Under the pieces are notes generated by a model that saw only the letters and a program-made list of their open reading frames with translations, was not told the DNA's origin and made no database searches. A DNA stretch of 64,000 bases from Naegleria gruberi (lineage: Eukaryota), in the NCBI GenBank assembly GCA_000004985.1, contig GG738907.1, one strand, 5' to 3'. Positions 28,535 to 62,148 of the stretch are shown in pieces; the stretch's first letter is position 1, and each line of letters starts with the position of its first letter. A program made the position numbers and the translations under genes.

Positions 28535-28617
28535 CCGATGATAGCTCAGCTGGTAGAGCATGGGACTGTAGCAAGAAAAACTGTCATCCTGTGGCGGTTC
28601 GATTCCGTCTCATCGGA
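28535..28617 (+). tRNA. tRNA-Tyr(GUA)-like gene with ~10-14 nt intron; anticodon-arm/variable-loop geometry irregular
   Basis: Acceptor CCGATGA/TCATCGG, D-arm GCTCAGCTGGTAGAGC, anticodon loop CTGTAG followed by extra sequence, and T-arm GGCGGTTCGATTCCGTC. A downstream T-run is present. Closely resembles eukaryotic pre-tRNA-Tyr. Confidence 0.65.
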
Positions 28618-42014: not shown

Positions 42015-42095
42015 CGTTGAGGATGGGATTCGAACCCACGCGGATTTCTCCACCAACTTAGCAGGCTGGCGCCTTAACCACTCGGCCACCTCAAC
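42015..42095 (-). tRNA. tRNA-Ser(GCU)
   Basis: Reverse complement reads GTTGAGGTGGCCGAGTGGTTAAGGCGCCAGCCTGCTAAGTTGGTGGAGAAATCCGCGTGGGTTCGAATCCCATCCTCAAC. Anticodon loop is CTGCTAA with a long variable arm; a downstream T-run is present. Confidence 0.85.
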
Positions 42096-46055: not shown

Positions 46056-46126
46056 CTCGAGTGCCGGGAATTGAACCCGGGTCGCCAGAGTGACAGTCTG
46101 GAATGCTACCACTATACCACACCCGA
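46056..46126 (-). tRNA. tRNA-Asp(GUC)
   Basis: Reverse complement reads TCGGGTGTGGTATAGTGGTAGCATTCCAGACTGTCACTCTGGCGACCCGGGTTCAATTCCCGGCACTCGA(G). A downstream T-run is present. Confidence 0.85.
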
Positions 46127-57049: not shown

Positions 57050-58059
57050 TTATTGCAAAACTTCCATGGTAGCTTCGACATCTCCATGTTCATTGGAGAA
57101 CAACATTTGTCTTTCGGCCAAATTCTTATAGATACCATGTTCAATGGCCATCAATTCAGCATGGGTACCAGTTTCTTTCAAAATACCCTTAGCCAAGACG
57201 CAAATCTTGTCAGAATTTCTAACAGTGGACAATCTGTGAGCAATACAAATAGTTGTTCTTCCCTTCATCAACAAGTCCAAAGCAGCTTGAACGAGAGCTT
57301 CAGATTCAGTATCCAATGCAGATGTGGCTTCATCCAACAAGAGAAGCTTTGGATCTTGCAACAAGGCACGAGCAATACAGACACGTTGCTTTTGACCACC
57401 TGAGAGTGAGACACCACGTTCACCCAATAAAGTATTGTATCCATCTGGCAAGTCCATAATGAAACTGTGACAGTTGGCAGATTTGGCAGCTTCAATAACC
57501 TTTTCCATTGTAGTATTTTCTTCACCAATAGCATATGCAATATTCTTGTAAATGCTGGTAGCAAACAATACAGGTTCTTGAGTGACAATACCAATATTCT
57601 TGTGGAGCCACATTGGATCGATTTCGGCAATATCAACACCATCAAGATAAACCTTACCCTTAGCTGGATCGTAGAATCTTTCCAATAAACCAACAATTGT
57701 TGATTTACCTGAACCAGATGGACCAACCAAAGCAACAGCTTGACCGGCCTTAATATCCAAACTGAATTCCTTCAAGACAGTAACATTTGGACGTGATGGA
57801 TAAATAAAGTCAACATTTTCAAATCTGACATTACCAATGATACTATCAAGAGTTTTACCTCCCTTGAAAATAATAGCTGGCTTTCTCTTCAACAACTTCA
57901 AGACAGTCTTTTGAGAAACCATGGCCTTACCATAATCAGGGAAGAATGAACCAGCTTGTGAAATACCAATAATAGCAAACAAGGTTAAACCGAAAACCTT
58001 GAGCATAGATCCGATATTCATGGTTCCTTCAACAACAAGACCTCCACCATACCAGAAAG
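57050..58059 (-). CDS. ABCB-type half transporter, exon 3 (NBD, to stop)
   Basis: Walker A (GPSGSGKST), ABC signature (LSGGQKQR), Walker B (LLLLDEATSALD) and H-loop. Confidence 0.85.
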
Positions 58060-58105
58060 CTAAAATAAAATTATTGAGCTAATTTGAAATAATTAAAAAA
58101 CATAC

Positions 58106-58803
58106 CCAAAGCAGTAGTACCCCACAAGATACCAACCAAAATACCAAAAGTAGAACCTTGAGCAACAGCTTTACCAATACCAGCCAAATACATCTTGGTC
58201 AAGTCCTTCTTGTATCTGACTCTTTCCTTTTCTTCTCCGGCCATTGATCTTACAGTTCTCATAGCTCCCATCACTTCAGTAGCAATGGAGGCACTATGAT
58301 CGTTGGCCTTATTAATTGCCAAAGTTAACTTTCTGATAATACCCCCGAGGAACACTACACCTAGAATCATCAATGGTGTAGTACTCATCATGACAAGGGC
58401 CATTTGCCATCCTGATGTCAAGGCAAGAATGACACCAATCAAAAATTGTGCCAAGTTTTGAAGTAAAGTAGCCATTTTGACAGAATAAATTTCTTGAATA
58501 CGAGTGATATCTTCTGAAAGTGTAATGGTCAATGCACCAACCTTCTTAATATCAAAGAAGCCCATCTCTTGAACTGTCAATGAATCAAAGTAAGCACTTC
58601 TAATAGCAACACCAATTCTTTCACTGGCCCAGTTCAAGAAGAATTGAGACATGAAATTGGCAATGCAAGCAGCAGCTGCAATAATGGCAAAGTATGAAGC
58701 ATAGACTCCAATTTCGGCCTTTTGTTGCTCTGGAGTAACAGTTGATCCATCTGCACGTGTTGGTGAAAAGACATTGATTAAATCTCCCATAACAAATTGG
58801 AAA
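58106..58803 (-). CDS. ABCB-type half transporter, exon 2 (TMD)
   Basis: Bounded by acceptor CTAATAG and donor GTATGT. Encodes TM helices ending ...LWGTTAL|AFWYGG, a conserved ABCB junction. Confidence 0.8.
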
Positions 58804-58853
58804 CTATTAGATTCAACAATATTAACAATCGGAATGTTAGTATAATTACATAC

Positions 58854-59143
58854 CTAATTGGAATCACACCAGTACCCATAGCTCCGATGCTTCCCAAGAA
58901 TACTAATATCCAATTCCATCCTATAATTTTATAAATTGTAAAACCGTCTTTAAATGTAAGATTTGGTTCTCTTTCATCAGGAATTTCCTCGGAATCTTTC
59001 TTTTCTTCTTCTTGTTTCTTCTTTCTCTTGAAAGGATTTCTTGATTTTCTTTCCGTTTGTGGTTGTTTCTTATCTTCCTTAATTTCTTGTTGTTGTGCTT
59101 TAACTTCCACCACATCAACAACTAATTCATTGTTTGCCGACAT
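58854..59143 (-). CDS. ABCB-type half transporter, exon 1
   Basis: True ATG at 59143 (the ORF tool used an upstream GTG). Basic/acidic N-terminus, then the start of TM1 (GWNWILVFLGSIGAMGTGVIP). Donor GTATGT. Confidence 0.7.
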
Positions 59144-59608
59144 GTTGTGTTCTATATACAAAGATGATTGTGTATTATCCACTATTATTATTCAAATTTC
59201 AAATTGATAGGAAGACCTAAAAGTTGAGTGGATAACAATTCGCTTGTTTTTTTCTGTTGTGTTTTTAATTTTAGTGGAGAGAATCTCAAGCACGTACAAT
59301 TTTCTTCCATCTAGAAGAGATTCAATTGCGACTGCAAGTCATTTGATGTTGTGACTATCATTGAAATGGTGGCGCACTTGTGGGTGTTGGTATTCAATAG
59401 TGCGGTAGGCACGCTTATAGCGAAATTGTTCAACGCTTATAGCGCCAATGTGTCTAACGGTAAGAAAAAACCCGCTCTTTAGTTGAGACTTTAGAGAGGG
59501 AGCATGAGATTTTTGAGTGAGGATAAATCCTATACTATTAATACAATACAATTACACAGTGTTAAGATTATCAATATTCTTTAGATTCATTGTTTTAGGG
59601 TTATGAAT

Positions 59609-59727
59609 GGCTACGGCCATATCACGATGAATGCACCTCATCCCGTCCGATTTGAGAAGTTAAGCATCGTCGAGCCACATCAGTACTGAGGTTGGAGACA
59701 ACTTGGGAACCTGTGGTGCTGTAGTCT
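59609..59727 (+). rRNA. 5S ribosomal RNA gene
   Basis: GGCTACGGCCATATCACGATGAATGCACCTCATCCCGTCCGATTTGAGAAGTTAAGCATCGTCGAGCCACATCAGTACTGAGGTTGGAGACAACTTGGGAACCTGTGGTGCTGTAGTC aligns block-by-block to eukaryotic 5S. A terminal T6 run is present. Confidence 0.8.
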
Positions 59728-59733
59728 TTTTTG
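59727..59733 (+). terminator. Pol III terminator (T-run) of the 5S gene
   Basis: TCTTTTTTGC immediately 3' of the 5S end. Confidence 0.6.
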
Positions 59734-60062
59734 CTTTTACCACACATTTTCTATTTAGAGACATTTTCATTACAAGATTCAAAGGTTGAGGTGGAAATCA
59801 AGGACGTTCTTTCCAGTCACTGGAAGACAGTGTCTATTATCCTCAATCTAAATCTCACAAGCTCATCAAATCTACAGAGATCTAAAGAGAAAAAGTCCTA
59901 AATATTCAACACTGGATTTTTAAGAAGCAATTAGTGGTAGTTGTCACCATTGCTAATTATCTTTTTAAATAGAAGAAATGAGAGAGGGATTTTTTCGTAT
60001 CGTAAACTTAACATATGAGGTAAAATATTTCAGTTGAAAAATAAGGTAATGGCAGTAAGGGA

Positions 60063-60132
60063 AAAGAAAAAGAAGTAAAATCTGCAGAAGGTGGGATTTG
60101 AACCCACGAAGCTTGCGCAGTAGAACTTGAGT
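60063..60132 (-). tRNA. 5'-truncated tRNA-Leu(CAA)-like sequence (D-loop through 3' acceptor strand), possible pseudogene or tRNA-derived element
   Basis: Reverse complement reads AAAGTGGTCAAAGGGGGTAGACTCAAGTTCTACTGCGCAAGCTTCGTGGGTTCAAATCCCACCTTCTGCA, with an intact anticodon stem-loop (CAA), long variable arm, T-arm and 3' acceptor strand. No matching 5' acceptor/D-stem was found. Confidence 0.5.
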
Positions 60133-60207
60133 CTACCCCCTTTGACCACTTTCAATGTGGCAAACACTAACATACCTACTGCGCAACCCCTGCTTCACAT
60201 TAAGGTA
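60133..60207. repeat. perfect 25-bp inverted repeat with 25-nt loop (75-bp hairpin) abutting the truncated tRNA-Leu-like sequence
   Basis: CAATGTGGCAAACACTAACATACCT ... AGGTATGTTAGTGTTTGCCACATTG, exact reverse complements. Confidence 0.85.
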
Positions 60208-60577
60208 TGTTAGTGTTTGCCACATTGAAAAATGCGACATTCCCCTTTTTGTTGGTTGAGTAGTATCTTATAGTAGATCAACAATGTTTCTAGAGCAGTG
60301 TTAGAGTGCAAATGTACTATCGTACTGACAAAAACTATTAGTGGTTCATTTGGATCATAAACTTTAACCTCATAAGAGTAGTATCGTACCTTCTCTAGAA
60401 GACTGATAAAAATGATTGATGGAGTGAACATGCGGATTTGTACCTTAATTTTTATGAATAAATGAAAAAACGAAAGTAATTCAAACTTTACCCCGTATAT
60501 TTAAACATTGAGGGAGGGTCATATGACCTTAATTAAATGAAGTCAAACCAAAAGTTTTGTCACAATATAAAACAGAA

Positions 60578-60649
60578 GGGGACCAGTGGGAATCGAACCC
60601 ACGGCCTCTCGCACCCAAAGCTATAATCATACCACTAGACCATGGTCCC
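60578..60649 (-). tRNA. tRNA-Pro(UGG)-like (anticodon stem has two A-G mismatches; possibly a pseudogene)
   Basis: Reverse complement reads GGGACCATGGTCTAGTGGTATGATTATAGCTTTGGGTGCGAGAGGCCGTGGGTTCGATTCCCACTGGTCCCC. It is near-identical to eukaryotic tRNA-Pro(UGG) except that 27-31 is ATAGC where the human tRNA-Pro(UGG) sequence, recalled from memory, has CUCGC. Confidence 0.6.
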
Positions 60650-61020
60650 TTACATGAAATATGAAGAATTTATTTCTCAATGTAGTATTATATCCTTATT
60701 TTTGATACCTTATCTCTTTAGATATTTATTGCAAGTCTTGTTGTCAACCCAAATATTCAACTTGTTTGTCATTGAGGATGAGACGATTGCAGCATTTCTG
60801 CTCTCATTCCTTAATTGATTAATTAGTGTGAAAAATCGAATGGACAAAGAAGCTATATTTTGAACATGACTAATCAAAAGTAAGTGTCGGTTTGACTAGC
60901 ACCGTACTTTCGTATTCACTACAGAACTTAATCATCAAAACTCGTGAACCTCAAGAAATTAAACCTGATATTATTGCGCATCAATCTATTGCATATTTAA
61001 TACTATTTTATTTTACAATT

Positions 61021-62148
61021 TTAATCGTCGAAGACTATTGATACATCAACTAGCTTTGAATTTCTGGCACTTTCGATTAATTTCTCCTTTGTTCTTGAAT
61101 GTTTGGTCATTGTCTTGTGCGAATTGTGGAAAAAACAGCATTGCCATCCACTGTTCAAAACATCATTAAATTTCAATGGGCCAACTCCAGCAAGTGAGCT
61201 CAATTCATCTAAATTAAACTTCTGTACGAATGGAAATTTTGGAAATGGTTTTTCAGGAAAATCAGCAAACATTTCACCAATACAAAATACATCATTCTTA
61301 CTATTGAGAAAATACTCTCCTCTTGAAAATCCTCCTATTTCAATAACTTCTCCTAAATCTAGAGGGCATTCAGTTAAATTATTATGATCTGAACTATCCT
61401 CCTTCAATCCAAATGTTGCTTGATGCATATTGTCATAACCACAACAAAATATCTTGTTCTCTTTGGTTCTAAGTATAACATGATAGTAACCTCCTTTAAC
61501 TTTGTCTATTGTGTGTTTTTTTTCTAGGAAAGTTGATAAATGGTTCAAATTGGAGTCATAATCTGAATAACCTAATCCTGATCTAATGTGATTGCCCAGA
61601 TCTTGAGCGTAAATCTTATTCTCTCTATCAACAATTAAAAATCCACCATTCCAACAACCTCCACATCTAATAACAGTATCATTTGGTATCTCAATTTTCA
61701 CAGGAGTTTCTTTTTTGCTCAATTCCCACAATTCGTTCCTGTCGTTGATAATTAAAAATTGATTTGCCAGAGGTCCACTCATTACTTCCTTAATCCTAAT
61801 GTTTAATTGATACATATGGCCCTCTGGATTCTCGGCAGAATCAATTCTCAAAACTCTTGTTCCATTTACATCAACTATATAAATTGAATCAACATTTCTA
61901 TAATATTCATTTGGTATAAAATCTGGATGGTGCTTTTTGAAATTAATTTTCAAAAGTTTCAAGGACACGGTTTTTTCAGCAATCAATTGATTATTGCCAG
62001 TCAATCGTGATAATTCCAATTTACAACAATCACCTTCGCCATGCCCAAAATAAACAATATCATTATTCTGATCTACAAAATAAATATACCTCTCTCCTCC
62101 GAACATTGTTTTAAATTGAAAATTAGTAAATTGGCAATAAAACAACAT
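61021..62148 (-). CDS. RCC1-repeat (beta-propeller) protein
   Basis: 375-aa ORF with RCC1-like blades (VKGGYYHVILRTKENKIFCCGYDNMHQATFG, IRCGGCWNGGFLIVDRENKIYAQDLG). A possible short 5' exon lies at ~62270-62291 (MLLALIL, donor GTGTATGT, acceptor TTATTGCAG). Confidence 0.6.
   Translation of the reverse strand: MLFYCQFTNFQFKTMFGGERYIYFVDQNNDIVYFGHGEGDCCKLELSRLTGNNQLIAEKTVSLKLLKINFKKHHPDFIPNEYYRNVDSIYIVDVNGTRVLRIDSAENPEGHMYQLNIRIKEVMSGPLANQFLIINDRNELWELSKKETPVKIEIPNDTVIRCGGCWNGGFLIVDRENKIYAQDLGNHIRSGLGYSDYDSNLNHLSTFLEKKHTIDKVKGGYYHVILRTKENKIFCCGYDNMHQATFGLKEDSSDHNNLTECPLDLGEVIEIGGFSRGEYFLNSKNDVFCIGEMFADFPEKPFPKFPFVQKFNLDELSSLAGVGPLKFNDVLNSGWQCCFFHNSHKTMTKHSRTKEKLIESARNSKLVDVSIVFDD

Follow-up and report, generated by a model that had tools for sequence, protein, structure and literature searches.

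The locus described here lies in a 64-kb stretch of DNA from Naegleria gruberi, referred to below as the window. Three Pol III elements, a 5S rRNA gene, a tRNA-Leu-like sequence and a tRNA-Pro gene, are found together in one intergenic stretch of 1877 bp (59144-61020) between two protein genes encoded on the minus strand (Table 1). The 5S gene is located 465 bp upstream of an ABC-transporter gene, whose start codon occupies 59143-59141. Both tRNA genes are found downstream of the 5S gene, on the opposite strand and convergent with it. Counted from the end of the 5S gene, the distance is 355 bp to the tRNA-Leu-like sequence and 850 bp to the tRNA-Pro, and the two tRNAs are arranged in parallel with a spacing of 384 bp. 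An earlier note on this DNA had placed all three elements, and the distances from the 5S gene, essentially where Rfam and ARAGORN place them.

Table 1. Features of the intergenic stretch and its flanking genes, with the basis of each assignment.
Feature	Position	Strand	Basis
ABC-transporter gene, multi-exon	57050..59143	-	ORFs; PF00664 and PF00005 on homologues
5S rRNA gene, full length	59609..59727	+	RF00001
Six-T run at the 5S 3' end, Pol III terminator type	59727..59732	+	Sequence inspection
TTTT, from 3 nt past the tRNA-Leu-like 3' end	60077..60080	-	Sequence inspection
tRNA-Leu(CAA), D-loop interrupted, probable pseudogene	60083..60193	-	RF00005; ARAGORN after in silico deletion
Second perfect inverted repeat, 11 nt	60113..60123, partner 60176-60186	.	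Inverted repeat I22
D-loop insert, 28 nt, exact reverse complement of 60203-60230	60150..60177	-	Inverted repeat I1
Upstream arm, -10 to -37 from the tRNA-Leu 5' end, presumed source of the inverted copy	60203..60230	-	
tRNA-Pro(UGG)	60578..60649	-	RF00005; ARAGORN Pro(tgg)
RCC1-repeat gene	61021..62148	-	PF13540 and PF25390

The ORF of the RCC1-repeat gene (61021-62148) is 100% identical to an NCBI entry, 'predicted protein [Naegleria gruberi]', and this identity rules out a dictyostelid origin of the DNA. The host is a heterolobosean, not a dictyostelid. The G+C content of the window, 31-37%, agrees with published values for Naegleria. Two other features of the intergenic stretch were inspected. 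A 73-aa ORF at 60210-60431 was rejected as a gene, having neither a homologue nor a record, and a GC-richer patch at 59355-59515 containing a 19-nt direct repeat gave no match in Rfam and no significant fold (z = -1.5 and -1.2).

The 5S gene matches RF00001 over model positions 1-120 with 105.4 bits (E = 4e-22), far above the gathering score of 38, which is the outcome of the threshold check that the earlier note had proposed. No non-canonical pair is flagged in its helices in the cmscan alignment. A run of T residues is the Pol III termination signal, and such a run is found at the 3' end of the gene. Judged from its sequence this copy is apparently intact, and it would presumably be transcribed on its own, from its own unit terminated by the T run. 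No tRNA-like sequence was seen upstream of it.

The linkage of the 5S gene to its neighbour is supported by an independent metagenome contig from ENA (L003), which is 99.1% identical to positions 57798-59636 of the window. The contig runs out after the first 28 nt of this 5S gene, among them a U at position 24 that the window copy shares. As it joins the same 5S gene to the same ABC-transporter gene, the junction is not an accident of assembly. The second check that had been proposed, whether the 5S gene belongs to a collapsed rDNA fragment, also came out in favour of a genuine chromosomal gene. SSU, LSU and 5.8S sequences gave no match anywhere in the 64-kb window, even at E-values up to 0.5; the only rRNA in the window is thus 5S, its flanks are unique protein genes and the metagenome contig backs the junction. 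A collapsed rDNA fragment is thereby ruled out.

A search with the 5S sequence pattern returned one metagenome locus, on a JGI contig (L004), and zero matches in the prokaryote-genome and viral collections. The 5S gene on this contig is identical to the window copy at 118 of 119 positions, and the similarity between the two sequences ends within about 3 nt of the gene borders. Since the similarity is confined to the gene, the 5S copies appear as bare genes in unrelated contexts. The nearest 538 nt on one side of the L004 gene and 1307 nt on the other are without a tRNA. No 5S locus other than this one was seen besides that of the window.

Contigs with homologues of the ABC-transporter gene were also compared. 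One of them (L001), from a related Naegleria whose ABC gene is 74% identical at the nucleotide level, has other neighbours on either side of the orthologue and lacks a Pol III gene. The contig from N. fowleri ends inside exon 1 of the ABC gene, and five further contigs with ABC-transporter homologues (44 kb) contain neither 5S nor tRNA genes. None of these has any bearing on gain or loss of the cluster.

In Dictyostelium discoideum the 5S gene is part of the extrachromosomal rDNA palindrome. Naegleria resembles Dictyostelium in having its large rRNA genes on an extrachromosomal element, but unlike that of Dictyostelium the Naegleria plasmid has no 5S gene. It encodes 18S, 5.8S and 28S rRNA only (PMC12482156), and the 5S genes must therefore be chromosomal. 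A total of 279 putative 5S genes have been reported from the N. gruberi assembly (Feng et al. 2012, PMC3369914), and Table S1 of that study lists them as spread over the scaffolds, mostly single, sometimes a few kb apart and never together with rDNA. Furthermore, the number of tRNA loci in N. gruberi has been given as 924 (Bermudez-Santana et al. 2010, PMC2888827). With dispersed 5S genes and abundant tRNA loci both published, tRNA genes in the neighbourhood of a chromosomal 5S gene are to be expected. The copy in the window shows no difference in kind from the published dispersed set of the same organism (PMC3369914): like these it is about 119 nt long, unlinked to rDNA and located singly between protein genes. 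The locus is thus of an already published kind, the dispersal of 5S genes in N. gruberi being known. The suggestion of the earlier note that a chromosomal 5S gene linked to tRNAs would be organisationally unusual does not hold for a species with 279 putative 5S genes already listed as dispersed, in a genus whose plasmid lacks one. It was argued from a dictyostelid, whereas the host is N. gruberi.

The proximity of the three elements could still be meaningful in itself. Six Pol III genes are found in the window, those for tRNA-Tyr, tRNA-Ser, tRNA-Asp, 5S rRNA, the tRNA-Leu-like sequence and tRNA-Pro, and the clustering of three of them is statistically marginal only (P about 0.015-0.06). The probability of finding three of the six within 1041 bp is 0.015 if they are placed uniformly, and climbs to 0.05-0.06 if only DNA outside long ORFs is allowed. 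The genome of N. gruberi is about 41 Mb, and with around 924 tRNA and 279 5S genes, or about 1200 Pol III genes in all, chance alone should produce a few neighbourhoods of this kind. The closeness is probably due to how densely Pol III genes occur in this genome and how little intergenic DNA is available to them, and not to a functional unit. The earlier observation of three Pol III elements within approximately 1 kb therefore stands, being reproduced by Rfam and ARAGORN; the unusual organisation read into it does not.

A functional role for the arrangement can nevertheless be formulated. TFIIIA was not found in N. gruberi by either BLAST or PSI-BLAST (PMC3369914), and a 5S gene without TFIIIA might rely on TFIIIC/TFIIIB recruited by the adjacent tRNA genes, which would make the cluster a functional Pol III unit. 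In its favour, the B boxes of both tRNAs are intact, and the P value under uniform placement is low. Several observations make such a unit very unlikely. The tRNAs are located downstream of the 5S gene at the distances given above and on the opposite strand, so that co-transcription is impossible, and the near-identical 5S gene of L004 has no tRNA in the 538 and 1307 nt that flank it. In addition, the rise in P when placement is restricted to non-ORF DNA and the number of chance neighbourhoods expected genome-wide both weigh against it, and an internal control region and a TATA box have been reported in the 5S genes of N. gruberi (PMC3369914). A broader version, in which N. gruberi 5S genes preferentially settle beside tRNA genes and use their B-box-recruited TFIIIC/TFIIIB and open chromatin, we regard as very improbable. 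If it were true, the present locus, including a dead tRNA-Leu with an intact B box, would be one case of a genome-wide TFIIIA-independent expression of 5S rRNA.

The closest precedent for a unit of this kind, and a loose one, is found in Yarrowia, where scattered 5S genes are likewise close to tRNA genes and dependence on TFIIIA is in question (2008, PMC2566860). There, the tRNA directly precedes the 5S gene on one strand and the two are co-transcribed, whereas the tRNAs considered here are downstream, convergent and hundreds of bp away. A dicistronic tRNA-5S gene of the Yarrowia type is ruled out by the position of both tRNAs downstream on the opposite strand.

The two tRNAs by themselves are more readily compared with the small heterogeneous tRNA clusters of eukaryotes. 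In eukaryotes it is common for a tRNA gene to have another less than 1 kb away, such neighbours turn over fast, and tRNA clusters have been tied to replication fork stalling and instability (PMC2888827). The tRNA-Leu-like and tRNA-Pro sequences, 384 bp apart and parallel with one degenerate member, are of this type, and the degenerate member fits the rapid turnover described. That survey left 5S genes out, and the adjacency of 5S and tRNA genes in Naegleria is not explicitly documented there.

Of the two, tRNA-Pro is the better preserved. It matches RF00005 with 50.6 bits, against a gathering score of 29, and is independently called as Pro(tgg) by ARAGORN. Its acceptor and T stems are perfect, and a TTTT is found beside it on the minus strand (60569-60572). 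The acceptor, D and T arms resemble those of a standard eukaryotic tRNA-Pro(UGG) such as the human one. In the anticodon stem, AUAGC/GCGAG, two pairs are mismatched in the Rfam alignment (A27/G43 and A29/G41). The stem thus appears weakened, and whether the tRNA functions is uncertain on sequence grounds. Both tRNA-like genes had earlier been described as structurally aberrant, which is true of tRNA-Leu with its 30-nt insertion and of tRNA-Pro only mildly, on account of these two mismatches.

The tRNA-Leu-like sequence is matched end to end by RF00005, with a score of 26.7 bits that falls under the gathering score of 29, and ARAGORN in default mode makes no call at 60083-60193. Most of a tRNA can nonetheless be recognised. 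The acceptor stem is GCAGGGG/CUUCUGC, the anticodon arm GUAGA-CUCAAGU-UCUAC has the anticodon CAA (loop CUCAAGU at 60131-60125), a variable region is present, and the T arm is perfect and includes a B box. The D arm and the A box are not continuous, being split by an insertion of 30 nt. As neither acceptor strand is missing and the anticodon arm, variable region and T arm can all be seen, the gene is interrupted, and not truncated as had first been thought. Run with introns allowed and relaxed settings, ARAGORN reports a 'tRNA-Gly(gcc) with a 22-nt intron' at the same position; this call appears beside a dozen spurious ones and was rejected as a threshold artefact. The sequence upstream of the hairpin described below was also inspected for another tRNA 5' half, such as a split or permuted gene would have, and none was seen.

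The insertion is located between tRNA positions 16 and 17 and consists of 28 nt and a following GT, flanked by a direct repeat of AGT. In silico deletion of 27-31 nt is sufficient for ARAGORN in default mode to call a tRNA-Leu(CAA). Furthermore, a MAFFT alignment with the tRNA-Ser(GCU) of the window, also a class II tRNA, runs end to end with a single gap of 30 columns and AGT on both sides. The 28 nt are repeated in inverted orientation in the upstream flank of the gene: the two arms (60150-60177 and 60203-60230) are 100% complementary over 28 nt and separated by a spacer of 25 nt, and the loop of the resulting hairpin holds the first 16 nt of the tRNA-Leu. The hairpin noticed earlier is thus real, with 28 of 28 positions complementary and no comparable inverted repeat in 100 shuffles. 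It is the sole perfect inverted repeat of at least 18 nt in the window, and as single-stranded DNA it folds with -33 kcal/mol (z = -10.3).

Two further oddities are seen in the same gene. The D stem still pairs poorly when the insert is removed (GCG versus GGG), and either further mutations have occurred or the tRNA-Leu of Naegleria is unusual. In addition, a second perfect inverted repeat (I22) pairs tRNA positions 8-16 and the first two nucleotides of the insert with the 3' part of the anticodon stem and the variable region (9 nt plus 2), and in the RNA fold it swaps the D arm and the anticodon arm for one long helix. This complementarity of 9-11 nt between the D region and the variable region is not explained by one event. 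Earlier decay, or a second quasipalindrome correction, may account for both oddities. The earlier note took the locus for a graveyard or birthplace of Pol III elements. The word graveyard is apt for tRNA-Leu, a disrupted gene and probable pseudogene; it does not apply to the 5S gene, which looks intact, and for tRNA-Pro it is possible and unproven.

Restoration of a detectable tRNA-Leu(CAA) upon removal of the insert is also what would be seen if the 30 nt in the D-loop were a non-canonical intron, spliced out to give a working tRNA. By inspection, the 3' junction can be drawn with a helix of 4 bp (CAGU/AUUG) and, after it, a bulge of three nucleotides (AAA). A bulge-helix-bulge consists of two 3-nt bulges with a 4-bp helix between them and flanking helices at the exon-intron junctions, and the full motif is absent here, as no flanking helices are possible and the minimum-energy fold has another structure. 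The tRNA-Tyr gene in the window has an ordinary intron in the anticodon loop, and the D stem of tRNA-Leu is defective even after removal of the insert. Moreover, an intron would have no reason to be the reverse complement, at 28 of 28 positions, of the upstream flank of its own gene. Apart from those of a red alga and of nucleomorphs, no nuclear D-loop introns are known to us, which also counts against this reading, and we give it hardly any credence.

The perfect 28-bp stem with its 25-nt loop could alternatively be taken as a functional or nascent precursor of a miRNA- or siRNA-like RNA, born inside a Pol III gene. In support of this, the RNA fold is stable (-70.7 kcal/mol, z = -7.9), generic models of miRNA precursors match with 37-46 bits, and new miRNA hairpins have been reported to arise by template switching (bioRxiv 10.1101/2023.04.19.537475). 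All of these miRNA matches are, however, far under the gathering scores of 80-90 and indicate shape, not homology; those to mir-633, mir-2011 and mir-5583 were rejected on this ground as reflecting a generic hairpin only. If the A box sets the Pol III start, transcription would begin at approximately the inner edge of the upstream arm, which would leave that arm untranscribed, and the arm sequence is found nowhere else in the window. A small-RNA function thus seems extremely unlikely.

A trivial origin of the inverted duplication, in cloning, sequencing or assembly, has also to be considered, as a second assembly of 59637-61020 was not found and L003 breaks off within the 5S gene. The whole feature would fit into one Sanger read, so that mis-joining of reads should not be able to produce it, and its flanks are otherwise collinear and gene-like. 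Palindromes tend to be lost in cloning, not created, which likewise speaks against an artefact, and we consider this explanation very unlikely. A MITE or foldback transposon was rejected as well, the arm being present at one locus only in the window, the loop holding the 5' end of the tRNA itself, and no duplication being found outside the arms.

The best reading is that a recent short-range template-switch mutation made both the pseudogene and the perfect 28-bp hairpin. As expected from such an event, the insert is an exact reverse complement (28/28) of a sequence 25 nt away. From these relationships, which can be read directly in the DNA, we infer the following course. DNA synthesis, while copying the D-loop, would have switched to a template 10-37 nt upstream of the tRNA-Leu, added an inverted copy of 28 nt from there and resumed on the gene at the AGT that forms tRNA positions 14-16. 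The outcome would be an insertion of 30 nt with a repeated AGT, a split A box and D arm and a perfect hairpin of 28 bp, and the tRNA-Leu has probably lost its function as a result. At the first switch point there is no microhomology. The perfect identity of the arms suggests that the event was recent.

Perfect hairpins are known to arise by short-range template switching (PMC5453318, PMC8794818). The published template-switch and quasipalindrome cases (Loytynoja and Goldman 2017, PMC5453318; Monttinen and Loytynoja 2022, PMC8794818) resemble the present one in having an exact reverse complement nearby and a hairpin formed in one step. The tRNA-Leu differs from these in that the change is a net insertion of 30 nt inside a tRNA gene. 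A search for an insert-free allele, strain or outgroup covering 59637-61020 found none, so that the ancestral state is one that we infer, and the metagenome, prokaryote-genome and viral collections gave no match to an intact tRNA-Leu(CAA) paralogue.

Taken together, the locus is best regarded as ordinary intergenic DNA of N. gruberi, holding three independent Pol III genes of which the tRNA-Leu was inactivated by a template switch; we put the probability of this reading at roughly 0.78. The apparent anomaly of its organisation arose from assigning the window to the wrong organism, and the locus in itself matters little. The tRNA-Leu opens no new question; it is a clean natural example of a hairpin apparently formed in a single step, by copying the upstream flank of the gene itself in reverse. 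It is found in a tRNA gene, a type of locus known to stall replication forks, and could serve to illustrate template-switch mutagenesis.

The 64-kb window carries five tRNA loci (Tyr, Ser, Asp, the Leu-like gene and Pro), against about 1.4 expected for that length, according to our own estimate of 924 loci in a genome that we take to be about 41 Mb. Counting the 5S rRNA gene, the window holds six 5S and tRNA genes, whereas some 63 kb from seven contigs with homologues of the neighbouring ABC-transporter gene (L001, L002 and L005-L009) yielded neither type of gene. The density of Pol III genes is therefore either uneven or species-dependent.

The ENA metagenome ERZ929261, the source of both L003 and L001, contains two Naegleria lineages. 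The first (L003) shares 99% identity with the N. gruberi window; in the second (L001) the ABC-transporter gene is about 74% identical and the neighbouring genes differ. The N. fowleri contig VFQX01000026.1 (L002) terminates within exon 1 of its ABC-transporter orthologue (L002 1-600). Furthermore, the annotated N. fowleri gene model appears to have the N-terminal exons of this orthologue split off as a separate small gene.

The other tRNA genes of the window and the small repeats at the locus are listed in the table.

Other tRNA genes and small repeats of the window
Feature	Window position	Strand	Remarks
tRNA-Tyr(GUA), intron-containing	28535-28617	+	ARAGORN intron mode; Rfam 43.9 bits
tRNA-Ser(GCU), intact	42015-42095	-	62.4 bits
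tRNA-Asp(GUC), intact	46056-46126	-	57.1 bits
19-nt direct repeat (ACGCTTATAGCG...)	59411-59451	+	84% identical, 22-nt spacing
11-nt inverted repeat in the tRNA-Leu-like gene	60113-60123 / 60176-60186		perfect
Imperfect palindrome, centre GGTCATATGACC	60506-60539		

In the Rfam alignment of tRNA-Tyr(GUA) the anticodon loop carries an insertion of 15 nt, which shows that canonical anticodon-loop introns exist in N. gruberi. Within the tRNA-Leu-like gene, the arms of the 11-nt repeat pair the 5' side of the D-arm with the 3' anticodon-stem/variable region, and in the RNA fold this repeat turns the molecule into a single long helix plus the T arm.

The direct repeat lies upstream of the 5S gene within a slightly GC-richer patch, which had no match in Rfam and no significant fold. 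The palindrome is found 40-70 bp downstream of tRNA-Pro.

The 5S gene itself recurs in an unrelated context. Positions 536-659 of the JGI metagenome contig L004 and 59607-59730 of the window contain Naegleria 5S genes that are 99% identical, and the similarity ends about 3 nt or less from the gene ends. It follows from this confinement to the gene that the 5S copies are either spread or homogenised as bare genes.
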